A DNA stretch of 58,300 bases from Chiloscyllium plagiosum (GCF_004010195.1 NC_057749.1:8125901-8184200), one strand, 5' to 3'; shown: positions 15,960 to 56,132, counted from the stretch's first letter. The notes: generated by a model not told the origin, from the letters alone. Made by a program: numbers and translations.

Positions 15960-16142
15960 TGAAATAAAACAGAAACACTGTGGGATTCTGAAGGTTTGAA
16001 ACAAAAACCAAAGCTGCGAGAGACACTCAGCAGGTCTGGCAGCATCTGTGCAGAGAGGAAGCAAAGTTAACATTTCGAGTCCAGTGACCCTTCTTCAGAA
16101 CACACCCAGACATTAGTCACTGGACTCGAAACATTAACTCTG
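15960..16142 (-). mobile_element. PLE-derived short element, family B, with short inverted arm
   Basis: Minus-strand tail + HHR, followed by inverted gtcactggactcgaaacattaactctg at ~16116-16142. Confidence 0.75.
16066..16101 (-). ncRNA. Minimal type I hammerhead ribozyme motif (family B)
   Basis: GUU-CUGAAGA-A-GGGUC-ACUG-GACUC-GAAA-UG-UU-AAC: stem I GUU/AAC, 5-bp stem II (one G-U), complete core. Confidence 0.7.
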
Positions 16143-16194
16143 ATGTCACTGGCATCAATGACCAGTTTGAATGGTGTCTCATAATTTGATGGTG

Positions 16195-16427
16195 TTCAAA
16201 GTTTGTGAGAAGATTTGTAGCTCGGGTGCTCGTTGTTGTGGTTCTGTTCGCCAAGAGTGGACAGCTGAAACTGACAACCGGAAGTGGCAGGGACAGGCCA
16301 CTATAAATGCCGGAGGAAACACCACAGAAGCGCTTCACAGGAGGCTCCCAAGCACTGAGGATGTCACCTAGACAGGGGACGAAACGTTTGCAACAAAAAC
16401 TTCCAGCTCGGCGAACAGAACCACAGC
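16195..16427 (-). mobile_element. Penelope-like insertion, family D, inverted arms, 12-bp TSD
   Basis: Same family as 40778-41214; perfect flanking duplication aatttgatggtg at 16183-16194 and 16428-16439. Confidence 0.85.
16352..16391 (+). ncRNA. Minimal type I hammerhead ribozyme motif (family D)
   Basis: GCA-CUGAGGA-U-GUCACCU-AGAC-AGGGGAC-GAAA-CG-UU-UGC. Confidence 0.75.
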
Positions 16428-16602
16428 AATTTGATGGTGCTAAAGTTGGTGCAGTTGCGAGCACAGAATATCCTGCCTTCTCCACCTCTCCTGAGATGTG
16501 ATGACTCTCATGTTGAAGCACCACTCTAATGAGAGAGCAGCCCTATGGTCTGGTAGGACTATGTTGACTTTCATTCGCCTTTGACATATTACACAGTAAG
16601 TA

Positions 16603-16840
16603 GAATCATACAATCCCTATAGTGTAGGAGCAGGCCATGCAATTCATCAAGTCCACACCATCCCCTCCGAGTAGCATCTCACCCAGACCCACCCCCTTAC
16701 CCTATTCCAATAGCCCTGCATTTTCCATGGCCATATTACCTCACCTGCACATCTTTGGATTATAAGAGGAAACCAGAGCACCTGGAGGAAATCCACGCAG
16801 ACCCGGGGCGAATGCGCAAACTCCACACCGACAGTCACAG
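16603..16840 (-). mobile_element. HE1-type SINE (5'-truncated) abutting a family A PLE tail (~16848-16972, +)
   Basis: HE1 body, then gatgaaggacttgtgctcaaaacgttgattctcctgctcc...ctcactttctcc. Confidence 0.75.
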
Positions 16841-17799
16841 ACATGGGTAGATGAAGGACTTGTGCTCAAAACGTTGATTCTCCTGCTCCTCGGATGCTGT
16901 CTGAACTGCCAAGCTTTTCCAGCACCACACTCTCGACTCTGATCTCCATTATCTGCAGTCCTCACTTTCTCCTCGAGGGAAATGGGTGAAAGGCAGGCAA
17001 GTGGGACTAGTTTAGTTTGGGAAACCTGGTTAGCATGGATGAGTCGGACCAAAGGATCTGTTTTTGTGCTGTATGATTCTATGGCTGTTCTCTTCATAGC
17101 AGAGAGATGACTGATGGTTGTTTAACCTCAGAGTCACCTCGCCTCAGATGAGGGGAGAGGTTGAGGAGGAGAGTCTTTCATGGTAACCTCAGCCAGGGCA
17201 GGAATTGAACCCATGCTGTTGGCATCACCCTGCGTGACAAACTACATTCTATTTTTTTCTGAGTTCAGAAAGGTGGGATAACTGACATTTTTAAGTCATC
17301 TCTATATTTCTTTGAGCCAGCTACCATCTCTCTACGATGTCAATCCTGCCCATGGCAATACAAATCAAGCTATATAACAGACAGGCTCACACTCAGTGGC
17401 AATGGGGGATTTTCCGATTTTGATGGACTCTCTTTGTATCAACACTCTTGTTTCGAGATTAATTAAGTCAAAAGTTGCTTAAGAGCTAGTATTGGCTGTT
17501 TTCAATGCTAATGTGTCTGAGTTGCCAGGCAACCAATGAATTGGATAATACTGATTGCTGAACACTGAGAGCACGAAATAGCCAGTCATTAACTCTGTAC
17601 CTTACAATGTTTGACAACTGACTGCAAAACCACAGACATCACTTGAAAGGAGTGTCATGACATTAAAACATAGCTCTGATTGAAATGTTGTGTTGTCTAA
17701 TCTTTGTTGCTCGGTTTTTCCAGTCTGGAATCTAATTCAGCTGTTCTTGGACAATGCCTATGTTTGGGTTGTTTTGGGGTAATCAATATTAAGGTAACA

Positions 17800-19014: not shown

Positions 19015-19325
19015 GGCTGGTATAGTGGTTCAATGGTTAGCACTTTTGCCTCACAGTGCCAGGAACCTGGATTTGATTCCAGCCTGGAGTGACTATCTTT
19101 TTAGAGTTTGTACATTCTCCCTGCGTCTGCATGGAGTTGACTCTAGTTTCCTCCCACACTCCAAAGATGTGCAGATTAGGTGGATGGGCCATGCTAAATT
19201 GCCCATAGTGTGCAGGCTAGTTTGGGTCAGCCATGGGAAGTGCAGGGATGAGATGGGTCTGGGTGGGGTGCTCGTCGGAGGGTTGGCATGGACTTGATGG
19301 GCCAAATGGCCTGCTTCCACACTGT
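19015..19325 (+). mobile_element. HE1-type SINE (a further partial copy at ~19420-19660)
   Basis: tggttcaatggttagcact head, HE1 body. Confidence 0.8.
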
Positions 19326-19779
19326 GGGGGATTTTGCAGTAGTTTGCCCACTTTTTAATTTCAGATCATCTTATTAACTAGAATGAAATTCTACTCATTT
19401 TTAAGCTTTGTTTTAATAATGGGGCGACTGTCTGTGAGGAGTTTGCACGTTTTCCTTGTGTCTGTTTGGGTTTCATCACACAATCCAAAGATGTGCAGGT
19501 TAGGTGGATTGGCCATACTAAATTGCCCATAATATCCAGGGATATGCAGACTAGGTGGATTGTCCATAGGGCATGCAGGATAGAGTGGCGGGGGGGTCTG
19601 GGTTGGATGCTTTCCAGAGGGTCAATGTGGACTCAATGGGCCGTATGACCTGTTTCCACACTATCAAGATCCAATGAAGTCAGGATGGTGAGTGACTTGG
19701 AGGGGAACTTGAAGGTGGTGGTGTTCCCATGTATCTGCTGCCCTTGAGCTTCAAGGTGGACGTGGTTGTGGAAGATGCT

Positions 19780-19986
19780 GAGTCAAGAGTGTGCTGCTGG
19801 AAAAGCACAGCAGGCCAGGCAGCATCCAAGGAGCAGGAGAATCGACATTTCGGGCATACACCTGATGAAGGGTTTATGACCGAAACGTCAATTCTCCTGC
19901 TCCTCGGATGCTGCCTGACCTGCTGTACTTTTCCAGCAGCACACTCTCGATTTTGATCTCCAGCATCTGCAGTCCTCACTTTCTCC
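19780..19986 (+). mobile_element. Palindromic PLE-derived element, family A, HHR core at 19862-19889
   Basis: Left arm is the reverse complement of the right arm minus a ~35-nt tail; CTGATGA-A-GGGTTTATGACC-GAAA-CG-TC at the centre; flanks gtggaagatgct (19768-19779) and gtggaaggtgct (19990-20001). Confidence 0.85.
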
Positions 19987-21005: not shown

Positions 21006-22829
21006 AAACTTTTCTGCCAAGATATTGTAAGTTGTCTATGATAACTGCATTACTTACAGGAAAGACAGCGCAAAACTGCTCCAGGAATATCTGATAAATG
21101 AAAAAATAATTACATTTTATTTCTAAAAGGTAGAACCTTACAAGATTTGCAATCTCTTACTTATTTAGGGTGCTCACAAAAATGTATCATTTTTGTCCCT
21201 TAACTAATACAATCTTGATAACTTTTTTAGAAGAAAATTAATCAGAATTAAGCCATTGAACCTGTAACAGAAACATCATCCTATTACAGAATTGACTGTA
21301 AATCATTATGTCCCTTCTAACCAGTATGAAAAGCAGGTTATGTGTGGAAGAAAACAACATATAAGCTAAATATTTGTGCTCAGTCTCCCAAATGCTATTA
21401 AAAAGGCACATGGCATTTCCTAATGGTAGTAATAGAGATTATTTATAGATGACAGCAAATGTGTTCTCAAAAAAACATGTTTGAAAGTTTTTAATCATTT
21501 TGTAATATTCTCTTATGAGTTCTTTCTGCACCATCTAAGAACTGTAGTCAAGGAAGGAGGCAGCCTGCTCTCTAACATGATCGCAGCTTGCCAAAGGAGG
21601 TCCTTCAGTCCATTAAGTGCATGGCTAGCTCACTGTCAGGCAATCCAGTCAAAGCGTTTGGATTTTTCTTTTAAGGAGTATGACAGTTAGCTAGAGAGCT
21701 GGGAAGGCAGCTGAAATAAGGAATCAAGGGCAAGTTGTATGGCTCTGGGCTGTTAGAAAAAGCTCAGGAAGAATGTTAAGGAATTAGTATGAAGTTAAGA
21801 GTTGGAGTCAGGATGCAGAAGTCATGTGCCTCAAATCGCACTGTGAGTTTTAGTTCTGTACAAGTTAGTCAACCAGAAGACAAAGTCAGGAACTCCCAGC
21901 AGGCTTAGACTTCAAAATAACACTATCACACATTAACTCAAAATGTCACAGTGCATGGTAAGCACGGATGTCGGTAAGGACTAATCTTTGTGTGTTCATA
22001 TCTTGTGTGTCTTCCAATCAAGGGTCACTGGACCTAAAACGTTAAGTCTGATTTCTGCCTACAGATGCTACCAGACCTGCTGAGTTTTTCCAGCAATTTC
22101 TTATTTTGTTCTCATATTCTAGTGTGTTCTAACTCTGCCTGTACTGTAGTATTTATGCTTAGTGATGTTGGCTCTGTGGCATCACCACAACATTGCTCCA
22201 GGGTCTTGAAAACCTGACATGACCATGGTGAGCCACCTTCTTCAACTGGTGTAGACCTCAAGGGAATTTCAGGAGTTTTATCTAGTGATAGGGAAGCAAT
22301 GGTAATCTAGTTCGAAGTAAAGATGGTGTGTAGCTTGGAAGGAAAATTGCAGGTCATGTTTTTTGCAGTCTTGTCCTTTTAAGTAGTTGGGGCTGCAGGT
22401 TCTAATGGTCCCTTGGCTGACAAGGAAGACTCATGGAATTGTTGGCTAGGGATCAGTAGCAAGATATTCAGCAATAAAGTAACTATCTGACAATGTAAAT
22501 GAAGTAATGGAGTCACAATGAGAATTTTTTTCAGGCAGATGACAGTTACCATCTGGGATACAGAGCCTGAGAGTGGAGTGGGAGCAGTTCAGAGTCGAGA
22601 GTGGGGTGCTGGAAAAGCACAGCATGTCAGGCAGCTTCTGAGGAGCAGGACGTTTCAGGCAAAAGTCCTTCATCAGGAATGAGGCTGAAGGGGGAGGAGG
22701 AGGAGGAGCATGAAGAGGGAGGTAGTTCAGTTGAGGACTCAAGAGGAAATTAGATTATTTTCTGCAAAGGAGCAATGTGAAGGGCTGTACTTTGGACACA
22801 AGTGTTCAGCTAAGAAATAGGCCATCAAG

Positions 22830-23342: not shown

Positions 23343-23625
23343 TGGCACAGTAGCTCAGTAGTTAGCACTGCAGCCTCACAGCACCAGGGACCCAGGTTCG
23401 ATCCCACCCTCAGGGGACTGCTTGTGTGCGGTTTGTACATTCTCCCCGTATCTGCGTGGGTCTCCTCCCAAAGTTCAAAGATATGCAGGTTAGGTGAGTT
23501 GGCCATGCTAAATTGCCCATAGTGTTCAGGTGGACTAGCCATGGGAAACGCAGGGATGGGGTGAGTCTGGGTGGGATGGTCTTCAGAGAGTCAATGGGCC
23601 AAATGGCCTGTTCCCCTTGCAGTAT
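23343..23625 (+). mobile_element. HE1-type SINE
   Basis: tggcacagtagctcagtagttagcact...ggttcgatccc head and HE1 body. Confidence 0.85.
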
Positions 23626-24742
23626 GAGTTCTGTGAACAGGTAGGTAAGTAGAGTAAGATAGAAAGGTTCTGACTCCAAGGCCATCGCAGAAGCATTGCC
23701 TTCCAGGAGGCTATAAATTCAAATAAAGAAGGGAGAGAAGAGCGACTGGACTCGAAATGTTGACTGTTTCTCTCTTTCCACAGATGCTGCCATACCTGCA
23801 GAGATTCTCTAGCAATTTCTGTCTCTGTTTCAGATTTCCCAAACTGCTGTTCTTCGTTTTATTAAAAAGAAGGGTCTGAAGCAGTAGAAACTGACCTGGA
23901 CTAGCCTTATAAATACAATGACTAAGAGAATACTCCACTTTGAAATTCAAATCGTTTCAACAGGAGTAAAGGTAGGTGATGGATACACTTGTGCAGTGAT
24001 ACAGATAGAGCCAGGCAGGTGGATAACGTGGGCCACTGGGGACAATGGCAAAATAAACTTAAGTGTGAAAACAGAATGAAAGTTAGTAAAAACAAAACAG
24101 AATAGACGGGATGGAAAGAAGTGAGAGTAGATCAGTCTGGAAAATTGAGATAAATACAAAGATTAATCCAGTGAGGAAGGAAACGCAATCAGATTGAGAC
24201 TAGTCCATTCAAAGTGAAATTAATACTGCAATATTATCATTTTCTTTCATGCTCAGAAGTGATGCTTTCAACTGCTCCATGAACTAGATTCATAAATGCC
24301 CCTTTGGAAATATCAAGGCAGCATGGCGATTATAAGTGGCAGGTGAAATGAAAACAGAAGGTGCTGGAGAAATTCAGCAGGTCTGAGGACAGAAACAGAG
24401 TTAATGTTTCAAGTCTAAAGACCCTTCTTGGCTTCTTGACAACAAAAGCAGTCATGTAACCAAAAACATAAAAGAATTAAAAGGAAAGAACTCCACTGAC
24501 AGTTTTCTTGTGAATAAACTGAAGTGGAGATAAGTAATCCCAAAACAACATGGGACCCTCCTTCCAGTGTTAAAGGAACATCACAGACTTGTGGTTCCTG
24601 GAAGAGTTCAGTCAAAGGTCAGAGTTTATAAATGCAGCTGACACTTTTTTTTAAAGTCTGGTTTAATTAGCATTGATTACTTTTTAAGAGATAACTTCTC
24701 CCCCGTATCCTGGCCCAAGTTTGGTTCCGCAACAAACACTGA

Positions 24743-24951
24743 TTAAGAAGTGCCGGTATTGAACTGGGGTGGACAAAGTCAGAAGTCACATGGCACCAGG
24801 TTATAGTTCAACAGGTTTATTTGAAATCACAAGCTTTTGGAGCACTGCTCCTTCATCAGGTGGAGTGAAGGAGGGGCAGTGCTCCAAAAGCTTGTGATTT
24901 CAAATAAACCTGTTGAACTATAATCTGGCATCATGTGACATTTGACCTTCT
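24743..24951 (-). mobile_element. Palindromic PLE-derived element, family C, mutated HHR at 24828-24862
   Basis: Inverted arms; minus CAC-CUGAUGA-A-GGAGC-AGU-GCUCC-AAAA-GC-UU-GUG (G12 to A); TSD aacaaacactga (24731-24742) / aacaaacattga (24952-24963). Confidence 0.85.
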
Positions 24952-24984
24952 AACAAACATTGACAGAATAGCAGATGATCTTTC

Positions 24985-26424: not shown

Positions 26425-26675
26425 AAACAGACACAAAGACTGCTGGAGAAACTCAGCAGGCCAGGCAGAATCTGGGGATTGAGAAACAGTTAACATTTCA
26501 AGTTGGATGAAATTCTTCTTCCAAATCTGCTCTGAAGTTCCCACAGTTCTGAAGAAGATTCACACTGGTTTTGAAATGTTCACTCTGTTTCTCTCTCCAC
26601 AGATGCTGTCAGATCTGCAGAGTTTCTCCAGCATTCTCTTTGCTTATTTCCAGCATTTGCAGTGTTTTGCTTTTA
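26425..26675 (+). mobile_element. Older palindromic PLE-derived element, family B-like
   Basis: Inverted arms around the degenerate core cagttctgaagaagattcacactggttttgaaatgtt. Confidence 0.7.
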
Positions 26676-31086: not shown

Positions 31087-31689
31087 AACATGCTGTCCAC
31101 ACTATCCAAGCATTCCATTTTTGTTCTTTCTGCTCCCTCCTCCCCTTTCACTGACTCTAAAAACATCTCACATTTTTATCTTTCTTCACTTTCAATGAAA
31201 GATCATCTCAACCTGAATCATGAATTCTCTTTCTGTTGAAAGGCTATCAAAAGGCCGTTGGAGTTAGTGACATTTTACCTTTGTTGTGGTTTTCTTGCTG
31301 TCAGTCTGGAGCCACATGTAGGCCAGACCAGGTAAGGATTATCTATTGACTTCTTCACCTCCTGATGCTGTGTTTTTCCAGCCTGCTGCTTGTCTACTCA
31401 AGACCAGGTAAGGATGGCAGCTTTTCTTCCCTGGATGATATGGTAAACAAATGAATATTCACAACAATCAGCAATAGTTGTAAGGTTGCCAATAGGCTAT
31501 CCACATATTATTAAATTCAAATTTCACCCATCTACCATGGTAGATTTCAAATACTTTCTCCTAGAATCAGAATTATTGCACTACTTTAATTCCCACATCT
31601 GTCTCAGATGTTAAATGGGCAAATTCCTCCTGATAGTTTGCTTTGCAAACAATCAATTGCAATGCTTTGCTCCATTCTAGCCAGTGTGT

Positions 31690-32605: not shown

Positions 32606-34259
32606 CAGACCAGCTAAAATATGTAGCTGCCTTTAAAAATTACAATCACAAGAAGCTGTAATTAATGAATTCTTGTAATCCAACAAGAAAAACATTGCTT
32701 CCTTTTGTTTTGTGCTGCTGCAGCCTTTATATTACCAGCCTACCTCTCGAATAAGGGAAACATTTATTTTTAAATAGAATTTGAAGGTGTAGATTAATCG
32801 GTTGCTGAAGAGCTCCTGCTTTCAGAGATAAACAGACTCCTAATGATTGAGATCCCAGAATCCCTTGTCCCTGGATCGATACCTAGCCAGATCTTCTCCT
32901 CTGCCTTAATTGTAAAGATTTCCTTTAAAAAAGACCCAAGAAATATGTCCAAAACACAGCAATACATTGTAATCTGGCACAGTGCATTTTGCAATGTGTT
33001 TTATTGCCTGTTTTCAGTTCTTTACTGCCTTTCAATTACAAGTAAATGGCAGTGCCCTGCACCAGGATCAATAGGGATCATTAAAAAGATGGCTGCGTCG
33101 AATGTAAGAAGAAACATGGTCTAACAACACAGACAAGCCTGCTGACATGAATCTTGTCTCCACTGTCAGTCATACCAATGAGGGAATGGGTTTAGAATGA
33201 AGCAGATTGCTTCTATAAATAATTTCCCTATCGCCACCAATCCGTCCATCCAAACCTGCCAAATCAATATAAGGAAATGGAACCACGGCCGTTTCATCCT
33301 CCAGCCCAACCTCTTTTATTCCTTTACTCATTCACAGAATGAGAGCATCGCTGGCTGGGCCAGCATTTGTTGTCCGTCCCTAACTGCCCAGAGGGCAGTT
33401 TAAGAATCACTTACATTGCTGTGGGTCTGGAGTCACATTTAGATCAGAATGGGTGAGGATGACATTTCCCTCCCAGGTGGAAACTGAAAGAACTGCAAAT
33501 ACTGTAAATCAGAAATGCTGGAAAAGCTCAGCAGGTCTGGCAGCATTTGTGGAGAGAAACCAGAATTAACATTTCAGGTCAAGTGAACCAGGTGGGTTTT
33601 TCCCAATAATCAATTCATGCTCAACATTAGACTCTTAATTCCAAATTTTTCATTGAATTCAAGTTCCACCATCCATTACAGCAGGATTCAAAGCCAGATC
33701 CCAGAGTCTTTGGATTAACAATCCAGCAGAAATGCCATTAGGTCATTGCCTCCATTGTTTCCCTTTCTGTCAGATTCTCCCCATCTGCTGCTAGAGCTAC
33801 ACTCCACGGCATCAGCCATAACTCATGGGCAGTCCTCAGTCGGTTGATTCTGGGCTCGGAGAGTTGAGCACAGGAGCTAGATTGATAATGCCAGTGTCAT
33901 ACTGAGGAAGAGCTGCACTCTCTATCTGTGCTATTGCTACAAAGCGTTAAATCAAGACTCCATACAGCCTCTGAGGTGGGAGCACAAGATTCTGTGATAT
34001 TATTTAGGGGAACTTATATTGGCAACATGTAACCTTCAATTTGCATCACTGAAAGCAAGGCATTTTGATTTGTCTCATGTTATTTTGTGGGAGTTTGCTG
34101 TGCCTCAATTCATTGCCATATTTCTACAAGACAGCAGTGGCTAACATTAATGAGAGGTTTCTTTTGGCTCTACAGTGTTTTGAGATGATCTGAGGTAGCA
34201 AATGTTGCTATGTAAGCCCATTTAGGATAGACAATGGTCTATTATAATCTATTATGAAA

Positions 34260-36697: not shown

Positions 36698-36864
36698 GCG
36701 CGGTTAGGCCACACAGAGGACATGCAGTGTCTGTTATTTGGGTGGTGAGGGTGAATGAGGAAGATGGCGCGTTCATTACCGAGAGTGGTAGAGCATGATG
36801 GGAGCTGGATGCAGTAACAGGGATAGAGTGAGTGTGAGATAGCGGAGAAAAGGTGATGGCACTT

Positions 36865-37393: not shown

Positions 37394-37535
37394 GCGTGGA
37401 CGTGCCGGTGTTGGACTGGGGTGGACAAAGTTAAAAATCACACAACTACCTACCTGACGAAGGAGCAGCACTCTGAAAGCTTGTACTTCCAAATAAAGCT
37501 GTTTGGCTATAACCTGGTGTGTGTTTTTTCATTTC
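37394..37535. mobile_element. PLE-derived element, family C, inverted arms
   Basis: Left: tail on minus (gtgccggtgttggactgggg...); right: HHR + partial tail on plus. Confidence 0.8.
37451..37485 (+). ncRNA. Minimal type I hammerhead ribozyme motif (family C variant)
   Basis: UAC-CUGACGA-A-GGAG-CAGCA-CUCU-GAAA-GC-UU-GUA; stem I UAC/GUA versus CAC/GUG in sister copies. Confidence 0.7.
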
Positions 37536-39615
37536 AAAGATTGGGATTAATTTTCTTGGAACAGAAGAGAAGGAGGGGGAGGGTTGTAGGTGGCAAGCGG
37601 GAAGGGAGAGATCATTGACCGGGGACGTAGAGTTAGAAAGATGCAGGAGGTTTAGAGGTGATGGACAGATTTTTTTTTCACTGAGATGTTGGTGTGAATC
37701 TGGAACTGACTTCCTACAAAGAGGTAGAGGCAGAAACCCTTATAATATTTAACAGGTATTTAAATATGCACTTGCAGTGCTAAGGCATACAAGACTAAGT
37801 GTTGGATATGGGATTAGAATAGTTTGGTGGTCATTTTTTTGACTGACACAGATGGGCCGAAGGGACTTTTTCTGTGTTTCAGACCACTAAACCTGACATG
37901 ATGCGCACTTCCCCCAAAAAAGTCACTAAAAGGAAAGGAAAAGGTGATAATCAGGAGTGGGGACTAAGAGGAGGAGGGCAATGGATTGAGGAAGGAATGC
38001 GGGGAGAGTGCCCTTGTGAACAACCATGTAGAATCCACACACCAAAGCCATGCCACAGGATGAGAAGGATGTATGTTTAGCACAGCACGCTAGAGCAAAA
38101 GGGGAAGGAACTTAGAGTTGAGGGACAAAAATGACAACTTGTGTGTGCAATATCTTTTGGTTCAATACTAAAAGTTGCTTCTTCCCTATGTCTTTTATTC
38201 CCTGTAAATGTTCTGTTGTCAGTTAAATTCAATCAGTCAGGAAATAAACCACAGAGGACTGCAACTATGAGAGAACAATGCCCTGTGCTACTTTTTATTA
38301 AGGACAAAATGTACCCTTTGAGTCTACTGAGCAAAAACATGTTTTATGAGCTGGCTAAAGTTCATAATCTAGCATGTTTATCAGAATGACCTGATGGAGG
38401 ACTTTATAATTATGAAGGGATTTATTAGGGCAGACGGAGAGGAGATCTTTCCAGATGACTTTGAGGGAACATAAAAGTAAGATTGTCTTTAATAAATCTA
38501 ATAGGAAATTCATGAGAAATATCTTTTAGCAAGAGAATGGTTAGAATGTGAAGCTAACTACTGCATGTATTTCAGGGAAATTCACCAGTTATTTGAAAGT
38601 GTGATGTAGAGTGTTTTATTTATCTAGATTTTGATATGATTTGTTTTAGAGTTTGGATTTGATCTAGTGACATATGTGTTAGGTCTGTGTGTCTGAAGGG
38701 GTTTAATGATTAAGTTGAAGGCATTTCTGTAGCCATGGAGATTTCACTTCAAAAAAATAAAAAATTATTAAAAATTGAAATTAAAATATTTGAAAAGTCT
38801 AAGAGAGAGAGAGCGCACTTGGAGAGTATATTTTATGACTGTACAAAATAAACAGAAACAAAACAGAAAGTGAGGAAAAAGGCAAAGCGTGGGTGATAGA
38901 ATTGTAAAAAAATTTGAGCTTCCTCGCGATAAGGAAATGAAAGAACTTCAGTTGGCTATAAAACAGTTTAGAGCAAAAACGGTAGGTACTAGTTTTAGAG
39001 AAAGAGAGAAAGGCACTCAAGATATAAAAAAGAAAGGTTGGACCTAAAAACTGATATCAAGAAGCTAACAGGTTTCCCTTATAATAAGATTTGACATAAC
39101 AAAGCCAAATGCTAGAAGTTAAATGAAAGATCAATTGCAGTTGTAGGAACATTTCAGGAATCTTCAGAAAAGGAGGCATCAGGGAAAGAAGCAGCTACTA
39201 AAATTAAATCACTTAGAATATCGACAAAGGGAATCCGATCATTCTTCTGAGCTTTCATTCTGAGTATTTTATCCCTAAAGAGAAGTTATTTCCTTTTGCT
39301 ATAAATCAAGGAAGATAAAAAAAAAGATATTGCAAGACATTGGAACACTTCAGGCACAGATGCTGGCTGATGATGCAATGTATCTTCTCAAAGGGTTTAA
39401 TGAAAGAGAAACTACAAATTGAAGGGACACATAGACGTGCAAAGTCATAAGGCCATAAGATATAGGAACAGAATTAGGCATTTGGTCCATCAAGTCTTCT
39501 CCACAATACAATTAGGACAGATATGTTTCTCAACCCCACTTTCTTGCCTTCTAACCATAACGTTTGACCCCATTACTAATCAATAACCTAATTATCTCTG
39601 TCTTAAATAGACTCA

Positions 39616-39794
39616 TGATTTGGAGATGCCGGTGTTGGACTGGGGTGTACAAAGTTAAACATCACACAACACCAGGTTATAGTCCAACAGGTTTAATTGG
39701 AAGCACACTAGCTTTCGGAGCGACGCTCCTTCATCAGGTGATAGTGGAGGACTCGATGTGATTTTTGGTGGTGTGGTGTTGTGTGATTTTTAAC
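39616..39794 (-). mobile_element. PLE-derived element, family C, 13-bp TSD
   Basis: ttaaatagactca (39603-39615) / ttaagtagactca (39795-39807); short inverted arm at ~39774-39796. Confidence 0.85.
39706..39740 (-). ncRNA. Minimal type I hammerhead ribozyme motif (family C), intact
   Basis: CAC-CUGAUGA-A-GGAGC-GUC-GCUCC-GAAA-GC-UA-GUG. Confidence 0.8.
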
Positions 39795-40815
39795 TTAAGT
39801 AGACTCAGTTCGGTTGGCCGTCCACAACCCTTTGCAGCAATGAGTTCCACAGATTAACCATCCCATGGCTGAAGACATTTCCTCCTTATCTCAGTTTTAA
39901 AGAGTCAAACCTTTACTCTGAGGTTGAGACCTTGGGTCCTTGTCTCTTCCACTAGTAGAAACATCTTTTCCACCTCCACTCTATCCAGGCTTGTCAGTAA
40001 GTCAGTGAAATGAAACCAGTCCCATTATATAGAGTTGGATTAAAGAGTGACTTAGTAAATGGAAAAAATATAGTGGGAATAATAGAACAAATGCCTATAG
40101 AAGGAATTACTTTACTGTGAGGAAATCATCTGGCAGGTTCAAAAACATTGGCTTTAACAAGGATGGTTTAACAACCAATGGAGGCAGAATAAACAGAAAT
40201 GTTACAAGAGGAGTTTCAAGGACCAGCCTGAGGAATGGATAGTCGTCCATAAAGTGACAGGTCCATCTGTCTATCATAATGAAACTTACAAGTGGATCAT
40301 GAAATTCCAATGACAGGTCACCACAAAGACTTTGCAATAATCAAAATCTTTGTGATTCATTTGGTTTCGGCATTATCACAAAAGGTGAGTTACAGTTACT
40401 ATGATACAGTTCAGTGATGTCTTTGCCCATCATAAACTTAATCTCTTTTCTCACTTGAGTGAATATTTCTAGAATGAGTCTATAATACACTTTCCACATT
40501 AGCATCTGGAGTAGCCAAAACAGTTTTGTCCTGAACTACCCCACAAACTGATTTTATAATAGCCTTTTCCCAAATGCATTGCTTCAGCAAGTCAAGCAGG
40601 AACTTCCATAAGCATATAAAATACTAGTGCCTTTCCTTAGTTTTAGATCGGGGCCCTAAGCAAACTAGGAAGATCCTCCTGAACAGTTCCTCACAAGCTA
40701 GTTTTGGAGCTAAAGGTGTTGCCACTCCCCACATATGTGGCATGATTGGCAAATTTTGACTATATCCATACCTAATACTGTTGTGGTTCTGTTCGCCGAG
40801 CTGGGAATTTGTGTT

Positions 40816-40855
40816 GCAGACATTTCGTCACCTGTCTAGGTGACATCCTCAGTGC
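40816..40855 (-). ncRNA. Minimal hammerhead motif (family D, left arm)
   Basis: GCA-CUGAGGA-U-GUCACCU-AGAC-AGGUGAC-GAAA-UG-UC-UGC; perfect 7-bp stem II. Confidence 0.75.
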
Positions 40856-41101
40856 TTGGGAGCCTCCTGTGAAACGCTTCTGTGATTTCCTCTGGCATTT
40901 GTAGTAGTTTGAATCTGTCGCTTCCGGTTGTCAGTTCCAGCTGTCCGTTCCAGTGGCCGGTATATTGGATCCAGATCGATGTGCTTATTGATTGAATCTG
41001 TGGATGAGTGCCAGCTGGAACTGACAACCGGAAGCGGCAGATTCAAACCACTACAAATGCCGGAGGAAAGATCACAGAAGCGCTTCACAGGAGGCTCCCA
41101 A

Positions 41102-41141
41102 GCACTGAGGATGTCACCTAGACAGGGGACGAAACGTCTGC
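41102..41141 (+). ncRNA. Minimal hammerhead motif (family D, right arm), GUC site
   Basis: GCA-CUGAGGA-U-GUCACCU-AGAC-AGGGGAC-GAAA-CG-UC/UGC; predicted cleavage after 41138. Confidence 0.8.
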
Positions 41142-41779
41142 AACACAAATTCCAGCTCGGCGAACAGAACCACAACAACGAGCACCCGAGCTACAAATCT
41201 TCTCACAAACTTTGTACATAATAATATCCAATAAAAATGTTTTACCATTTTAGCCAGTATTTCCCTAATCTCCAAGGCATCTCAAATAGTTTCTGCTGGA
41301 GGTATCTAACATTTACATGATGGTGACAGTGATGGGCATTTGAAGATTTCCCTTAGGTGTACCGCATATGACAAGAGACCAGAGTTAGCGGAGCACAGAT
41401 ATGGTGGAAGATTGCAGGAATGAGCAAAATATTACAGATAGGGAAGGGGTGAGACCATAGAGGGACTTGAAAATACAAATGAGGACTTACGAATGATGAT
41501 GGTGCCAATGTTGATAGATTAGCAAGCACAAGGGTGACAGGGTAAAAAAGAAAGCAGAAATTGCTGGAAAAGCTCAAGAGGTCTGGCAGCATCTGTGAAG
41601 AGAAATTAGAGTTAGCATTTCAGATCCAGTGACCAGAATTGAGACTTGCTGTAAGTTATCTCAAGGTTAAAGGTAGTAGAATGTGGGAGACCAGGCATGA
41701 ATGTACTGGAAAAATGGAATCTAGACATGACAAAGATGTGAATGAGACCATCCGTGTTGAGTATATTTTTTCCTTCGTC

Positions 41780-43205: not shown

Positions 43206-43419
43206 AGCTGAAAAATGTGTTGCTGGAAAAGCGCAGCAGGTCAGGCAGCATCCAAGGAGCAGGAGAATTGACGTTTCGGGCATTCCTGAAGAAGGATTCC
43301 TGAAGAAGGGCTTATGTCCGAAACGTCGATTCTCCTGTTCCTTGGATGCTGCCTGACCACTTTTCCAGCAACACATTTTTCAGCTCTGATCTCCAGCATC
43401 TGCAGTCCTCACTTTCTCA
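43206..43419 (+). mobile_element. Palindromic PLE-derived element, family A, HHR at 43296-43331
   Basis: CUGAAGA-A-GGGC-UUAU-GUCC-GAAA-CG-UC; TSD aagacactctag (43196-43207) / aagacattctag (43420-43431); 14-bp junction duplication attcctgaagaagg. Confidence 0.85.
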
Positions 43420-43477: not shown

Positions 43478-43713
43478 GACGAAAACAGATGTTGCTTGAA
43501 CAGCTCAGCGGGTCTGGCAGCATCTGTGAAGAGAAACTAAAGTTGATGTTTCAGGGCCAGTGACCCTTCCTCAGAACTGTTTTGAGGAAGGGTCACCAGA
43601 CCAGAAACAGTAACTCTGACTTCTCTTCACAGATACTGCCAGACTTGCTGAGCTTTTCCAGCAATTTCCATTTTTGTTTGTGATTTACAGCATCCGCAGT
43701 TCTTTCGGTTTTT
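43478..43713 (+). mobile_element. Palindromic PLE-derived element, family B
   Basis: Arms meet at tgacccttcctcagaac-t-gttttgaggaagggtca; both HHR cores are decayed; inserted in CR1. Confidence 0.85.
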
Positions 43714-46429: not shown

Positions 46430-46600
46430 AGTTAGAATTAGAATTAGAATTAGACTTTAGAATTAAATTTAGAATTTAGATTTAGAATTAGAATTAGAAT
46501 TAGAATTTAGAATTTAGAATTAGAAATATAATTAGAATTTAGAATTAAAATTAGAATGTAGAATTAGAATTAGAATTTAGAATTTGAATTAGAATTAGAT
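46430..46600. repeat. (TTAGAA)n microsatellite, probably the expanded tail of a minus-strand LINE remnant
   Basis: Tandem ttagaa/tttagaa next to tctatcgtcacat...tacaatgttgcc. Confidence 0.9.
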
Positions 46601-47109
46601 TCTATCGTCACATCTATTCAAATACAGGGATAGAGTGCACAAAAAGGTCTACAATGTTGCCTTTCACCGTACCGCCTTAGGTAAAAAATCTTAGGTACGA
46701 GGCAGAAAAATAAGGAGTGGCCCACAGCTTTTGTGTGCTGCCAATCGTAACCTATCAACTCGCTGGACTTTGTTTTTAAGCAGTCCCTCCCAACAAGAGA
46801 GGAGGCTGCATTCTACGCTAAACAAGTGGAACCTACTTGGAAAGGTTGACCAGTCTGAGGCTCTATTGTCTGGAAGAAAAGGAGAGTGGCCCGTTAGAGG
46901 TCTTCAAAATGGTGGAGAGGCTTTGATAGACAAAAAGCCATGGGTAGATATAAACATAGAGCAATCTAAGACAGCTCTCACTTAAGCATGCTTTTTTTAA
47001 TTCATTGGCAGGGTGTGGGCATCATTGGCTAAGCAGGCATTTAATGCCCATTCCTAATTGCCCAGAGGACAGTTAAAAGTCAAAACCACATTGCTGCGGT
47101 TCTGAAGTC

Positions 47110-48076: not shown

Positions 48077-48420
48077 GGGGCAGCACAGTGGCTCAGTGGT
48101 TAACACTGCTGCCACACATCACCAGGGACCTGGGTTCAATTCCAATCTCTGGCAACTGTCTGTACGGAGTTGCACATTCTCCTTGTGTCTGCGTGGGTTT
48201 CCTCCGGGTGCTCCGGTTTCCTCCCACCATCCAAAGATCTACAGGTCAGGTGAATTGGCCACGCTAAATTGCCCATAGTGTTCAGGGATGCGTAGGTTAG
48301 GTGCATTAGTCAGGGTCAAACACAGGGAGTGGGTCTGGGTGGATTACTCTTTGGAGGGTTGGTGTGGACTTGCTGGGCTGAAGAGCCTGTTTCCACACTG
48401 TAGAGATTCTAATCTAATCT
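48077..48420 (+). mobile_element. HE1 SINE with probable TSD
   Basis: Full head and tail; aatcttatgg (48069-48078) / aatcttacgg (48416-48425). Confidence 0.9.
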
Positions 48421-50014
48421 TACGGCGTGGCCATCACTGACAAAAACAAAAATAGTAACCCACTGAATTAAAAAAAACAACTGCAGATGGTGGAAATCAG
48501 AAACAATTGCTGGACAAAACAGAAATTCTGGAGAAGGATCATCGGACCCGAAGCGTTAACTTTAATTTCTCTCCATAGCTGTTGAGTTTTTCCAGCAATT
48601 CCTGTTTTCGTTGCTTGTAACCCAAGAAGGTGAGCTGCTTTTGTAAACCATTGCAGTCTGTGTGGTTTGGGGAGCTCCGGGATTATTCCAATGGGAATGA
48701 AGGAATGGCACTGTAACTCCAAATTAAAATAGTGTAAAACTTGATGAGGAGCATGGAGTTGGTGATATTCCATGGATTCAAAGCCCTTGTCCTTATAGAT
48801 GGTACAGTACATGGGTCTGGAAAGTATTTCTGAAAAATTAGCTATGGCAATTGACAGCAGCTCAATCTGTGAATGGTACACGCTTCAGCCACAAAGTACC
48901 CATGGTGGATGTTTATGGCTGTCGATCAATTATTGTCACAGATTCTCTAAAAAAGTCCTCCTTCTCCATTTCTCTAGCCACAGAGTGTGCTAATGGGACA
49001 AAGCACTTGTCCTGTCACTGTTGTGTGTGGTAGATAGAGACTTCAACAGCATGGAGTTAGCAGGATGTATTGGAGGGATGCCCTGCATTCATCCAACCCC
49101 ATAGCTGCATCTTCAGTCCATACTATCTATTTGTTATTTTTCTTAAGAACGAGTTCTAGATCCATTGCAGAAAATTAAAACTAAACTTCAGGGACTCAAG
49201 CATAACAACAGCTAATGGCTTTGAATGTTGTGTAGTCACTTCATAACAATCAATCAACACACAACATATCTTTTATTTTAAAAAATGAACATTTTAATCC
49301 ATTTGTACACTCATAACCAATCACTGTCATGCCAACCCTAGCTAAGTTTTGAGATGAGTTTGGTTCACCATGTTTCACAGATGGTCTTTACCTCCTGAAG
49401 GTGTTCAGCAACCACCAACCCATGTCATCCCATTACAACTTATTCCCTTATATTCTGCTCTTTGTGTTAACTGCTGAATTTGCAACACTCTCTCATGGGG
49501 TCTCTCATCTTTTATTGCTTCAGATCACTCCATACAGAGATTTTGTCTTCTTTAGCCAGATAATTTCAGTCCTCACCCCATTCTCTTTGTTTTTTTAGTG
49601 CTTGATTTACTTCTGCTTGGCTTCACACAAAGTGACACAATGTAACTAAAGTAGAAGCAATGAGAAGACAGAATGCAGAGTAGTCATAGAGTCATTGAGA
49701 TCTATAGAGAAAGGCCCTTTAACCCATCATGCCTTTGCCAGTCAATAACAACCACCTAACTAGTGCTATTGTCCTAGCAATCTGATGGCCTTGTCCTAAG
49801 TTTTTAATATATTAATAGGAAAAGGCAGGATAGATAAAGATAAGCTATTTCCATCGGTTAGGGAATCAGGAACTAGGAGTACAGTCTGAAAATTAGGACC
49901 AGACGGTTCAAGAGAGATAACCAAAACAGAAATTGCTGGAAAACTCAGCAGGTCTGGCAGCATCTGAGGAACTAAAGCAGAGTCAACATTTCAGATCAAT
50001 GTTTTTGCTTCTGA

Positions 50015-50350
50015 TTAGGTGACATGGTGGCTCAAATGTAATATGGTTGCCTCACAATGCCTGAGATCCAGGTTCGATTCCACCCTCAGGTGACCATCTG
50101 TGTGGAGTTTGCACATTCTCCCCATGTCTATATGGGTTTCCTCCCACAGTCCAAAGATGTGCATGTTAGGTGGATTGGCCACATTCAATTGCTCACAGTG
50201 TCCAGGGATGTGTAGGCTAGGTGGGCTAGCCATGGAAAATGCAAGGCTACTGGCATAGGATGGAGGTGGGTCTGGTTGGGATGGTCTTCGGAGAGTTGGT
50301 GCAGACTCAATGGGCCAAATGGCCCGCTTCCACACTGTAGGGATTCTATG
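50015..50350 (+). mobile_element. HE1-type SINE, followed by a CR1 3' end (~50385-50610)
   Basis: ggttcgattcc B box and HE1 body; YTQRVVNVWNALPQRAV downstream. Confidence 0.85.
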
Positions 50351-54119: not shown

Positions 54120-54556
54120 GACTTATAAGGAGAGGCTGGATAGGCTGGGACTTTTTTCACTGGGCGTTGGAGGTTGAGAGATTACTTGAGAGAGGTTTAT
54201 AAAATCATGAGGAGTATAGATAAAGTGAGTGGCAGGTGACTTTTCCCTAGGATGGGGGATTTCAAGACTCAGGGGCACATTATTAAAGCAAGAGGGAAAA
54301 GCTTTTAAAAAGGCATGCATGGCAACTATTTTTACACAGAAAGTGGCTCATGTGTGGAATAAACTGCCAGAGAAAGTGATGGATGTGGGTGCAGTTACAA
54401 TGTTTAAAAGACATTTTGATAAGTTTATGAATAGGAAAGGCTGGGATATGGGACAAGATCAAACAGGTGGAACTAGTTTAGTTTGGAATTACAGTCAGCA
54501 TGGACTGGTTGGACTGAAGGGTCTGTTTCCATAGTGGTACGACTCTATGACTCTAT
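54120..54556 (+). mobile_element. CR1 3' end
   Basis: YKERLDRLGLFSL; FTQKVAHVWNKLPEKV; tatgactc tail. Confidence 0.9.
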
Positions 54557-54972
54557 GCCATCGCCAGTACACCACCTCCCTGTCAGCTTAACGATCTAAC
54601 ATCACTATGAACATAACTCCTTACACACATGCTCAGTGGCTATTCTTCAAGTCAAGGTTTGGTTGCACTTTATACACAATTACCTCTTACAGAACATTGA
54701 GGCCTTGAAGGAGGATGTTCAGCCCATCGTGCCAGCTCTTTTAAAGTTCAATCTAATTGGACACACTTGTTTTTTAAGAAAGCTCTAATAGTTATAAGCC
54801 ACTGTCTTTTAATTCTCCACCATTGCATTGCCACGTTGGTAACTGTGACACATTTGGTCAGCTTTTCTGTTGTGATTTATTGATCTTGTATGAATGGGAT
54901 GCCTTATGGACAAATGAGCCACTGTGACAAGTCGTTAGGCACCAGTGTGTAAAAAGGACTAATTGTTAGCGG

Positions 54973-55107
54973 CAAAAACTGAAAGAATTGTGGATGCTGT
55001 AAATCAGAAACAAAAACAGAAATTACTGGAAAAACTCAGCAGGTCTGGCATCATCTGTGGAGAGAAAACAGAGTTAATGTTTCGGGTCGAGTGACCCTTC
55101 CTCAGAA
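54973..55107 (-). mobile_element. PLE-derived element, family B, HHR at ~55074-55107
   Basis: Minus UU-CUGAGGA-A-GGGUC-ACUC-GACCC-GAAA-CA-UU-AA with a perfect stem II; flanks aattgttagcgg / aaatgttagagg. Confidence 0.8.
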
Positions 55108-56006
55108 ATGTTAGAGGTGTTGTACTAATGGAAACATATTTGCCAGACATGATTTTTTCCCACAGAATGCAGCCATCTACATCTTCATGTATGCCGAATG
55201 CAAAGATGCATTTTTAAAATGATGTATGTCATTGTAAGGTACTTGCGTACAATGGTGAAGAATAATTGATCAGGCTCTTTTTCAAGAAGTTGATGGTCCT
55301 TTAAATTGGGCCGACTGCATCTTTCGCACCCCTGACCTTCATCGCTCCACTATCGACTTTTCTTAAATTCTGAAACCTTTCCCTCTATCTTTAACTCTCC
55401 CCACCCCTTTCCAGATGCTGCTTTTTTTGGCCAGTCTTCTAGTCACTTGCTCTAAAAGTTTCTCAAGTTACTCGCTGTCAAATATTGTTTGATAATGCTC
55501 CTGTGAAATATCTTGGGACTCTAAATGGCACTATATAAATTCAAGTTATTGCCAGTCAAACAGAACTTCAAGCCTGGTGTGGAACTCAAATCCAACTGAA
55601 AAATCTCTTCAGTGAAGCTTAAATGTACAAACGTAGACCAGACATCAAACGTACTTTTGAAAAGGAGGTCATGGGGTTAATCTAAATTTCCAGTGTAATT
55701 TTCCAGCAGTGGGAATGTTATAAAAATATGTATTAATGCCAGTCTTCATACAGGTAACAAATTTCTTCATTATGAATATACTTAACCAACTTATTCACAC
55801 GTGCTCCAACACACCTTTGGAGCACGTTGGACTCAAACCCAGGTCTCCTAGATCAAACCCTACCACAACAGCCCCTTAGTCCACCTTAACCTGCTGACTA
55901 TGAGCCAATTTGGGGATCAAAGCAAATCGTAGTTCAGACCGTGTGCGGACCCATGTATAAAATAGGAGGTCTAATGATGTGTAGATTAGACGGATTATCC
56001 ATGTTG

Positions 56007-56132
56007 GGAAGGGTCACCCGAGCCGAAACGTTAACTCTGATTTCTCTCCATAGGTATTGCCAGACCTGCTGAGTTTCTCCAGCAATTTCTGGTTTTGTTT
56101 CTGATTTCCATTATCTGCAGCTCTTTCTATTT
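56007..56132 (+). mobile_element. PLE-derived element, family B, truncated within the HHR
   Basis: ggaagggtcacccgagccgaaacgttaactctg + tail; other single-arm copies at ~90-182, ~850-915, ~9560-9692, ~22020-22115, ~23735-23840, ~24348-24430, ~33481-33587, ~41545-41635, ~48470-48612, ~49920-49997. Confidence 0.75.

Follow-up and report, generated by a model that had tools for sequence, protein, structure and literature searches.

Minimal hammerhead ribozymes (min-HHRs) of metazoan Penelope-like elements (PLEs) were described by Cervera and De la Pena in 2014 (PMC4209133). These motifs possess an unpaired base that sits after position 9 and before 10.1, a G10.1-C11.1 pair and a palindromic 15.2-16.2 segment, and they occur as dual motifs, one on each strand at a distance of 100-700 bp; the main text of that paper names no chondrichthyan among their hosts (PMC4209133). 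Insertions of PLEs are on record as showing 5′ truncation, an inverted arm and a tail of 30-40 bp (PMC8557442), and both DNA strands are cut and extended during insertion of the Poseidon element PAc of Anolis carolinensis (PMC11167929). What defines non-LTR retrozymes is their arrangement in tandem arrays together with circular RNA (10.64898/2026.07.22.740005).

The window considered here is the whole 58,300-nt stretch of Chiloscyllium plagiosum DNA that was analysed (GCF_004010195.1 NC_057749.1:8125901-8184200), with the features of main interest at 15960..56132. Four dissimilar repeat families, designated A to D, have one layout in common, in which CUGANGA is followed by one additional nucleotide and stem II, then by GAAA, a palindrome (ACGU or AGCU), H17 and a helix I of 3 bp. 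As this kind of motif was described in 2014, the present families are further examples of known biology; the combination of a PLE with a minimal hammerhead is already known from other animals, and it is the abundance that is unusual here. The reading preferred, at a probability of roughly 0.88, is that the four families are hammerhead-bearing 3′-terminal (pseudo-LTR) regions of several lineages of endonuclease-positive PLEs, and that the window's copies were left by retrotransposition and are dead and non-coding. A first-pass annotation had proposed the four families from ten sites, all of which carry the motif to within a few bases: 19862(+) and 43300(+) for A; 16098(-) and 55105(-) for B, given earlier by their opposite-strand positions 16066 and 55074; 39737(-), 37454(+) and, in decayed form, ~24850(-) for C; and 16355(+), 40852(-) and 41105(+) for D. 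Further sites are found at 43574(-) (B), 22676(-) (A-like) and 26549(+) (decayed B). The earlier count of about 20 copies was too low, as the window holds 33 arms in ~23 insertion events, listed below.

80..140, minus: A/B tail fragment, outside 15960..56132
9571..9694, plus: B copy, 5′-truncated
15966..16100, minus: B copy; hammerhead 16098->16073
16116..16150, plus: B, short inverted partner of copy 15966-16100
16193..16255, minus: D inverted 5′-truncated arm, limited to the element's final ~63 nt, optional tail included
16193-16429, flanks: 12-bp target duplication AATTTGATGGTG around the whole D composite
16260..16429, plus: D direct arm, no tail; hammerhead core 16355-16384; last codons of the PLE ORF
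16850..16978, plus: A copy, 5′-truncated two bases into the CUGANGA box
19795..19898, minus: A inverted arm, 5′-truncated inside stem II
19835..19986, plus: A direct arm; hammerhead core 19862-19885, in which mutation has weakened stem II
22020..22110, plus: B copy, 5′-truncated
22607..22679, minus: A-like copy preceded by proline-rich 3′UTR-like sequence; hammerhead 22676->22653
23737..23837, plus: B copy, 5′-truncated
24345..24427, minus: B copy, 5′-truncated
24740..24863, minus: C inverted arm, tail; decayed hammerhead at ~24850(-), GAAA changed to AAAA
24866..24952, plus: C direct arm, start inside the CUGANGA box; ~9-bp target duplication AACAAACA
26425..26650: B head-to-head pair, 26425-26499 minus and 26543-26650 plus; decayed hammerhead 26549-26576
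33481..33589, minus: B copy, 5′-truncated, 8-bp target duplication CCAGGTGG
37403..37446, minus: C inverted arm, 3′-terminal ~45 nt with tail
37441..37534, plus: C direct arm, no tail; hammerhead 37454-37478
39613..39757, minus: C copy, tail; hammerhead 39737->39713 (GGAGC/GCUCC, AGCU)
39774..39796, plus: C, 23-nt inverted partner of copy 39613-39757
39613-39796, flanks: 8-bp target duplication TAGACTCA around the C insertion
40776..41013, minus: D inverted arm, no tail; hammerhead 40852->40823, perfect 7-bp stem II
41012..41217, plus: D direct arm, ~40-nt tail; hammerhead 41105-41134
41551..41634, minus: B copy, 5′-truncated
43212..43336, minus: A inverted arm
43261..43418, plus: A direct arm; hammerhead 43300-43323 (GGGC/GUCC, ACGU, C17)
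43479..43581, minus: B inverted arm, no tail; hammerhead 43574->43549
43580..43713, plus: B direct arm, tail, start inside the CUGANGA box
48526..48615, plus: B decayed copy, 72% to the reference copy
49919..49992, minus: B copy, 5′-truncated
54960..55112, minus: B solo copy, tail; hammerhead 55105->55080 (GGGUC/GACCC)
56007..56133, plus: B copy, 5′-truncated in the CUGANGA box, tail

Motif statistics were drawn from 17 hammerheads of five families, and the core counts are biased because these 17 were chosen as motif matches. In this set CUGA-N-GA is present in 16 and GAAA in all 17, in the correct order and spacing, and the extra nucleotide after A9 is A in 12 and U in five. As had been claimed, stem III is reduced to a palindromic tetramer (15.1-16.1) standing where helix III would be: ACGU in 8/17, AGCU in 4/17, the CpG-decay forms ACAU/AUGU in four and ACGC in one. 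At the expected cleavage site, U16.1-H17, position H17 is C, A or U, never G. Pair 1 of helix II, the G10.1-C11.1 closing pair, is G-C in 14/17 and G-U in 3/17; pairs 1-3 are standard in 17/17 with 2, 3 and 5 pair types respectively, indicating compensating changes between families. Pairs 1-3 of helix I are standard in 17/17, 16/17 and 12/17 (3, 4 and 3 pair types), and the C copy at 37441..37534 has GUA/UAC, a compensating change relative to the GUG/CAC of other copies. Pair 4 is standard in only 6/17, and helix I is therefore ~3 bp long; what was previously drawn as a long stem I for A comes from the neighbouring inverted arm of the same insertion and lies outside the ribozyme. Judged by its sequence, the motif is a minimal type I hammerhead of the PLE type with an open helix I.

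A loose descriptor (CTGANGA-N4-30-GAAA) has 19 matches in the window versus 7.3 +/- 3.0 in 100 shuffles of the window, none of which reaches 19. With a strict descriptor (uninterrupted stem II of >=4 bp, loop of <=8 nt) there are 7 matches in the window versus a mean of 0.025 (maximum 1) per shuffle in 200 mononucleotide shuffles, an excess of ~280-fold, and 0 matches across 30 reverse-transcriptase (RT) loci of ~105 kb in total. The hammerhead models of Rfam give 0 matches at the gathering score in the window and none at E <= 10, whether the whole window or 4.2 kb is searched. Rfam hammerhead models include helix III, which we suppose to be the cause of this silence. Copies decay freely, by CpG loss in ACGU and by core mutations, such motifs are weakly active in vitro (PMC4209133), and PLE clades devoid of hammerheads (Naiads) thrive (PMC8557442), all of which would suit hammerhead-like words that arose by chance or hitch-hiking, have no RNA function and are kept only by the youth of the repeats. 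This is nonetheless highly improbable, given that five families with unrelated stems and flanks share the core, the spacing, the extra nucleotide, G10.1-C11.1 and the palindromic tetramer, that compensating changes are present in both helices, that the strict descriptor so greatly exceeds its shuffles, and that the motif is kept in D despite coding in two frames.

The families resemble published min-HHRs in being type I motifs with an extra unpaired nucleotide and a palindromic tetramer but no helix III of their own, and in occurring as many families per genome, with compensating changes and mostly as single dispersed copies from truncated PLEs, and also as opposite-strand pairs of motifs (PMC4209133). 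They differ in helix I, ~3 bp here versus 4-5 bp as published; helix II, set against the same source, measures 4-5 bp in the three families A, B and C, D alone having 7 bp (PMC4209133). Host and number differ as well. Near-intact motifs amount genome-wide to at least 163,555 for A, 47,562 for C, 21,219 for D and 5,830 for B, at least 238,166 over all four families, and reversed-pattern controls yield 0 matches genome-wide for each family, which bears out the very large and diverse load proposed at first. The ~4,000 motifs of coelacanth and ~9,000 of Xenopus were called remarkable (PMC4209133), although methods differ and the comparison is rough. The genome size is 3.56 Gb.

The insertions show the hallmarks of PLEs, namely 5′ truncation, a head-to-head inverted arm, a one-sided tail and target duplications of 7-15 bp that enclose the composite insertions; the truncation, the inverted arm and a tail of 30-40 bp match those on record (PMC8557442). 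Their 5′ ends are variable and their 3′ ends common, the latter falling into two classes ~35-40 nt apart, and the optional tail of ~35-40 nt is found on one side only of an insertion. Among the matches listed, D neighbours <2.3 kb apart are head-to-head in 15/16 pairs and direct in one, and C neighbours are head-to-head in 10/13 pairs, convergent in one and direct in two; an inverted partner lies directly upstream in 11/30 B copies. Numerous copies form almost perfect palindromes, which score weakly in Rfam as miRNA-like hairpins, the C arms 24740-24863 and 24866-24952 together form a pre-miRNA-like hairpin, and D copies end in complementary 20-mers. The MITE-like look noted earlier has its source in the PLE-typical inverted 5′-truncated arm, and the elements are not MITEs: that they are MITE or foldback DNA transposons with hammerhead-like words in terminal inverted repeats merits virtually no credence, as paired arms differ in where their inner ends are cut off, at points that vary, and arms often occur alone, target duplications range in length between 7 and 15 bp, the tail is on one side only, and arms run on into RT and endonuclease frames.

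Those frames also settle in favour of PLEs the question, raised by the first-pass annotation, of whether the repeats lead to PLE ORFs or to the terminal inverted repeats of DNA transposons. The PLE order of RT followed by GIY-YIG endonuclease is complete in A, D has endonuclease and RT-like frames, and C has RT only. For A, locus L091 adjoins C8:30845948-30848086 on the 3′ side; that stretch belongs to an 893-aa open frame and is 46% identical, with no stop, to residues 181-899 of P0013, a 902-aa protein with RVT_1 and GIY-YIG. The order at L091 is stop codon, ~160 nt of UTR, A hammerhead and element end ~85 nt later, and it recurs in L090, L093, L095 and L088, five loci in all. Pfam GIY-YIG scores 25.2 bits at L078:365-700 versus a cut-off of 22.6, and a GIY motif is linked to an A hammerhead by at least five coordinate cross-matches among the matches listed. 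For C, two direct 229-nt repeats (94% identical) at L081 are separated by 2,517 nt, both carry a C hammerhead, and they flank frames with PLE-type RT motifs in a pseudo-LTR arrangement; RVT_1 is weak there (E = 0.0044, below cut-off), this one RT-bearing C element has no endonuclease part, and none of the 100 C matches listed adjoins a listed GIY motif. For B, whose 3′ tail is common to A, no coding partner was found, the 30 copies sharing at most about 8 nt upstream of CUGANGA.

The D hammerhead sits at the end of a GIY-YIG endonuclease frame, with RT-like sequence upstream. Translation upstream of it in L012, L004, L010 and L014 gives ...VVYKIPCKDCTKHYIGQTGRQLTIRIHEH...H.FDWDNT.IIGQA..., with LPFLDV...VYRK further upstream, and the motif YIGQTGRQLTIR lies 331-342 nt from a D hammerhead on the same strand in at least three places in C1 among the matches listed. 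The proteins nearest to the D frames carry RVT_1 and PF26215; the GIY-YIG match in L012 (E = 0.014) is below the Pfam cut-off. In L010 two direct D hammerheads at a distance of 1,191 nt enclose an element with an internal deletion, again a pseudo-LTR arrangement. The copy at 41012..41217 has an ORF ending in ...STEDVT, its stop codon within loop 2, while A9, the extra U and G10.1 together spell an AUG; in L010 the frame from this AUG (MSPRQGTKRLQ...) runs, with one stop, into ~240 aa containing KNLS...KGLNY. The D ribozyme is thus predicted to be read as protein in two frames also, one ORF ending in loop 2 and the AUG opening an N-terminal frame. In PAc the ORF likewise starts at hammerhead stem II (PMC11167929); a loop-2 stop codon ending the upstream ORF, as in D, is not known to be on record for PAc. 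By analogy D might be labelled Poseidon-like, the sole basis of the label being this PAc-like ORF start. Unlike that of PAc, A and C hammerheads are not at an ORF start, that of A following the RT+GIY-YIG stop codon at ~160-220 nt. Stem II of the dominant D variant contains an A.G mismatch, the variable position being G in 98/100 zero-mismatch matches listed. The first-pass view of short element families needs qualifying: as separate families A and D do not stand, being 3′ ends of ORF-bearing PLEs, of which the window has 5′-truncated or mini copies.

If the families are PLE 3′ regions, insertion would begin with transcription of the PLE RNA, after which the element's RT and GIY-YIG nuclease would nick both DNA strands and reverse transcription would start at one of two internal sites near the RNA 3′ end. 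Two such start sites are known from published in vitro work on PAc (PMC11167929) and would explain both the optional tail of ~35-40 nt and the head-to-head arm. Most cDNAs would be 5′-truncated; the products seen have one direct arm, often an inverted 5′-truncated arm, and a target duplication. The hammerhead, with ~3 bp in helix I and 4-7 bp in helix II, would have its fold completed only by pairing of its ACGU or AGCU with the tetramer of a second copy, and it is therefore presumed to act as a dimer in cutting PLE RNAs that are multimeric or paired. When two copies were folded by minimum energy the double hammerhead did not emerge, the A and C copies examined show no clustering of 5′ ends at the cleavage site, and cleavage is not needed for PAc insertion in vitro (PMC11167929).

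B, for which no coding partner was found, has sharp boundaries, its unit beginning at the hammerhead and measuring about 105 or 140 nt, and the short copies of A are likewise discrete and have target duplications. Metazoan non-LTR retrozymes, reportedly the subject of work by Cervera and De la Pena in 2020, offer another account of such units: short A, B and C units would be transcribed, self-cleaved, circularised and copied by the PLE RT, the dispersed copies being solo monomers. The present units resemble retrozymes in being non-coding, 100-400 nt long and equipped with a type I hammerhead dependent on a partner copy, and according to a 2026 preprint vertebrate retrozymes descend from PLE pseudo-LTRs, are present in its one chondrichthyan and have monomer proportions from 0 to 1 (10.64898/2026.07.22.740005). 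However, the tandem arrays of retrozymes, an option left standing by the first-pass annotation, are absent from the window and from the matches listed for D, B and C: among the 100 matches listed for each there are no same-strand neighbours at unit spacing, and even the nearest direct pairs are spaced by 1.2-2.5 kb, with PLE sequence in between. Unit ends, moreover, do not coincide with the cleavage site. A retrozyme origin is accordingly very unlikely, and the units are better taken as PLE products.

Among these products, the many short copies that start within ~12 nt upstream of the hammerhead are possibly new. All 30 B copies start <=8 nt before CUGANGA, 16/29 unselected A copies start between -12 and -1, and 7/18 C arms start between -20 and -3. 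It is conceivable, if somewhat doubtful, that the main PLE progeny, instead of being truncated at random, are defined mini-elements of ~105-165 nt, running from the 5′ strand of helix I to one of the two reverse-transcription start sites. Should this be so, a short RNA comprising only the hammerhead and the 3′ recognition region would be produced and be copied in trans very efficiently, and its origin could be a start site, or else processing, at the ribozyme's 5′ edge; the copies would then constitute a ribozyme-headed, SINE-like class of >200,000 members in which the hammerhead, beyond cutting multimers, marks or shapes the 5′ end of the template. Short starts may otherwise reflect pausing or template switching of the RT after copying the ribozyme, and those of A may reflect divergence of upstream sequence between subfamilies. 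In the three solo A copies examined, the target duplications abut starts at the hammerhead edge.

The hammerhead words named by the first-pass annotation are present at all 10 of its sites, and the motif is real, structured and well above chance expectation, as judged from shuffle controls and from a comparison of core and helices among 17 hammerheads. The loose pattern CTGANGA-N4-30-GAAA matches the window 19 times, versus 7.3 ± 3.0 in shuffles. A strict descriptor, which tolerates one extra base and requires a continuous stem II of 4 bp or more with a loop no longer than 8 nt, gives 7 matches in the window versus 0.025 per shuffle, and 0 on 30 unrelated reverse-transcriptase (RT) loci (~105 kb). 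The 17 compared hammerheads, all picked as motif matches, represent five families: A, B, C and D, which are the ribozyme-bearing repeats of the window, and a D-like family from locus L077 of the same genome. Here the core boxes are present in 16/17 and 17/17, A9 is followed by an extra nucleotide, A in 12 cases and U in 5, and the cleavage-site nucleotide H17 is G in 0/17. Helix III is replaced by a tetramer, which is ACGU or AGCU in 12/17, a CpG-decay form in 4/17 and ACGC in 1/17. Covariation is evident in both other helices: pairs 1 to 3 of helix II are standard in 17/17, using 2, 3 and 5 pair types respectively, and pairs 1, 2 and 3 of helix I are standard in 17/17, 16/17 and 12/17, using 3, 4 and 3 pair types, with pair 4 mostly unpaired. 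Folding returned helices I and II for A and C monomers; with two copies, the double-hammerhead was not recovered. An Rfam scan (gathering score and E ≤ 10) reported no hammerhead family, and gave weak miRNA-like hairpin matches on the palindromic insertions.

The dominant variant of D stem II has an A.G mismatch in mid-stem, the variable position being G in 98 of the 100 zero-mismatch matches listed; the D copy at window position 40852 has U there and a perfect stem (versus 41105). This position is also a codon, Gly versus Val, in a frame starting inside the ribozyme. The D-like hammerhead (L077:794-838, that is G000:C1:733794-733838) is located behind a frame that reads as an endonuclease, YIGQTGRKLATR. 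Stem II of this family, GUUACCU/AGGUGAU, is compensated relative to D, and A9 is changed to C in this copy.

The genome's load of ribozyme-bearing Penelope-like (PLE) or retrozyme-like elements had been described as very large, and this is borne out by high near-intact motif counts in all four families, the reversed-pattern controls giving 0 matches each.

Near-intact hammerhead motif matches, genome-wide
Family A: at least 163,555, up to 1 mismatch
Family C: at least 47,562, up to 1 mismatch
Family D: at least 21,219, up to 2 mismatches
Family B: at least 5,830, up to 2 mismatches

The density of this catalytic RNA motif is about 1 per 15 kb across a vertebrate genome of 3.56 Gb. The window itself contains 33 arms from about 23 insertion events.

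Each insertion event consists of a direct arm, often accompanied on its 5′ side by an inverted arm truncated at a different point, and a tail of ~35-40 nt is found on one side of the insertion only.

Composite insertions in the window
16193-16255, minus strand, with 16260-16429, plus strand: family D
40776-41013, minus strand, with 41012-41217, plus strand: family D
37403-37446, minus strand, with 37441-37534, plus strand: family C
24740-24863, minus strand, with 24866-24952, plus strand: family C
43479-43581, minus strand, with 43580-43713, plus strand: family B
19795-19898, minus strand, with 19835-19986, plus strand: family A

Since the target duplications, 7-15 bp long, lie outside both arms of a composite, each composite represents a single event. 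Among the matches listed genome-wide, 15/16 neighbouring D pairs and 10/13 neighbouring C pairs are oriented head-to-head, and an inverted partner is present for 11 of the 30 B copies. The best 100 of the 163,555 A matches are unusable for orientation counts: 99 of them lie on the plus strand although strand totals are balanced, and a known exact minus-strand match at locus L005 is absent. The published PLE signature (PMC8557442) comprises 5′ truncation, pseudo-LTRs, an inverted 5′-truncated copy and a 30-40-bp tail, and the insertions here agree with it. A reading of these repeats as MITEs was rejected, since 5′ truncation, an inverted 5′-truncated arm and a one-sided tail constitute the PLE signature instead.

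The long "stem I" earlier attributed to family A is a by-product of an adjoining inverted arm, and the weak miRNA-like Rfam matches are likewise by-products of inverted arms. Head-to-head arms at window positions 43505-43651, 19812-19921 and 24823-24901 form long, near-perfect hairpins to which Rfam assigns weak scores as miRNA precursors of plants or animals (E 1e-5 to 0.4, in every case under the gathering score). False miRNA calls, or else genuine small RNAs, are likely to arise from such hairpins. Within one A-type head-to-head pair, at L095:985-1100, the first nucleotide of the inverted arm is exactly the one that follows the predicted cleavage site, and the arm gives the adjacent hammerhead a long perfect helix I; this is a single case, with no such enrichment in the survey.

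It had been proposed that family consensuses could be extended to partners encoding RT and a GIY-YIG endonuclease. This succeeded for A and D and reached RT only for C (locus L081). No coding partner was found for B, whose 30/30 copies share nothing past ~8 nt upstream of CUGANGA and whose 3′ region shows homology to the corresponding part of A; two B copies in direct orientation, 3.2 kb apart, were dismissed as a segmental duplication without an ORF. The link to endonuclease frames was made with a GIY-YIG motif, back-translated into a 35-place pattern, which gave 18,540 matches genome-wide versus 21 for the reversed control. Among the matches listed, three places have the D-type variant of this motif followed by a D hammerhead 331-342 nt downstream. 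The D copies have their 3′ end in common and differ in their 5′ ends; upstream, the longer ones (L012, L004, L010 and L014) read as a GIY-YIG endonuclease, VVYKIPCKDCTKHYIGQTGRQLTIRIHEH...FDWDNT.IIGQA, with the RT-like sequence LPFLDV...VYRK ahead of it. The upstream frame ends ...STEDVT*, its stop codon sitting in hammerhead loop 2, and a second frame, MSPRQGTKRLQ..., is opened by an AUG built from A9, the extra U and G10.1, so that two coding frames overlap in the D ribozyme. At L010 the AUG frame extends for ~240 aa, with one stop, into a PLE-type N-terminal region. Other common GIY-YIG motif variants belong to elements with the ORF end ...RLIF.LGTLQPQG.N.DF.SF...*.

In these elements, those of family A, the order is an ORF stop, a proline-codon-rich UTR of ~160-220 nt and then the hammerhead (L090, L091, L093 and L095; also L088, with a deletion). 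L091 is the flank of a stop-free stretch, part of an 893-aa open frame, that aligns with residues 181-899 of P0013, a 902-aa database protein with RVT_1 and GIY-YIG domains. On the 5′ side of the locus with this frame (L092, G000:C8:30848001-30848600, element orientation), at least 5 tandem repeats of a ~100-nt unit are found; part of the sequence beyond them, further upstream, reads N. Pfam GIY-YIG scores above cut-off on L078, which together with L084 and L089 is an internally deleted derivative in which the endonuclease region is joined directly to the hammerhead. The closest proteins to these frames come from the annotations of Chiloscyllium punctatum and Leucoraja erinacea, suggesting an elasmobranch host. 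At L081, two direct 229-nt repeats, 2,517 nt apart and each with a C hammerhead, surround frames with PLE-type RT motifs, and the endonuclease part is absent; from this one locus, C may be an endonuclease-less lineage. Three further apparently endonuclease-less loci were in fact of A type, with part of their sequence masked.

Across the 136 window frames that reach 75 aa, Pfam detected neither RT nor GIY-YIG; its sole finding there was a LINE fragment at 56744-57615. It gave no match on 9 frames near D pairs. Of 150 candidates scored genome-wide against Pfam GIY-YIG, 1 matched, weakly, and the 150 strong matches to RVT_1 were other retroelements, with a hammerhead in 0/30 loci; neither search reached a PLE.

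The 5′ ends of many copies fall at the edge of the hammerhead, counted here from C3, the first core base of CUGANGA. Among 29 A copies unselected for the hammerhead, 16 begin between -12 and -1, 4 reach more than 60 nt upstream and 9 begin at or past +9; 7 of 18 similarly unselected C arms begin between -20 and -3, and all 30 B copies, which were selected, begin at most 8 nt upstream. In all three solo A copies examined, target duplications abut these starts. The cluster is absent from D, several copies of which begin ~95 nt upstream, and there is no enrichment at the cleavage site itself, starts 3 nt before it occurring in 2/29 A, 0/26 B and 1/18 C copies. Since 5′ ends cluster just ahead of the ribozyme, these data suggest that a defined short RNA consisting of the hammerhead and the 3′ recognition region may be a frequent template. 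Alternatively, the cluster could mark a stop or switch of the reverse transcriptase, or reflect subfamily divergence. The clustering, for which a short-RNA template is one possible source, is possibly a new detail. Its sharp boundary in many copies and the two coding frames that share the D ribozyme are modest new leads on the ribozyme's use to the element.

Acting as dimers by way of the ACGU or AGCU tetramers, the hammerheads would presumably cleave PLE RNA that is multimeric or paired. Cleavage by motifs of the min-HHR (minimal hammerhead) type is weak and dimer-dependent (PMC4209133). For the Anolis Poseidon element PAc, PMC11167929 describes cutting and extension of both strands, reverse transcription begun at two internal sites, and insertion in vitro for which cleavage is dispensable. 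The insertion anatomy here fits that two-strand cutting and extension with two internal RT start sites, and the D arrangement, a second frame opened in the ribozyme, is that of PAc, whose ORF begins at stem II (same source).

Minimal hammerheads in PLE pseudo-LTRs are established biology and unsurprising to a specialist. All defining traits of the 2014 min-HHR description are present here (PMC4209133), PLEs were already known in sharks (PMC8455134 and PMC4350176), and a 2026 preprint reports PLE-derived retrozymes in one chondrichthyan (10.64898/2026.07.22.740005); the first-pass reading was therefore correct, the elements belonging to a kind already known, found here in one more host and at an unusually high load. 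A literature search on the hammerhead ribozyme in shark genomes returned no papers. Standard RNA-family scans overlook every copy, and head-to-head arms mimic both miRNA precursors and MITEs, which affects repeat annotation and small-RNA annotation in shark genomes.

The window as a whole is AT-rich repeat DNA with no recognisable host genes. In the LINE fragment at 56744-57615, one frame encodes a domain of the GDSL-lipase/OSK-like type (E = 1.3e-7 and 2.4e-7), and the frame after it shows a weak match to the endonuclease/exonuclease/phosphatase family (E = 0.0066). At 30142-31119, a 52-nt unit without relation to the hammerhead families is tandemly repeated in two arrays that face opposite ways (7 copies at 30142-30619 and 7 at 30668-31119), with arms of up to 235 nt that are 83% complementary; Rfam gives a mir-2545 match at 30544-30743 that stays sub-threshold, at 59.3 bits against a gathering score of 94 (E = 5.9e-9). 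Another abundant interspersed repeat, probably a SINE, has at least 7 copies with a ~76-nt core, 61-84% identity to the reference copy and no hammerhead.

Copies of the ~76-nt-core repeat (others also present)
19141-19216
19465-19540
23455-23530
48211-48286
50131-50206

Simple-sequence tracts are found at 36421-36714, with (GAGT)-rich units of 4-12 nt, and at 46407-46614, with (TTAGAA)-like units of 12-13 nt.
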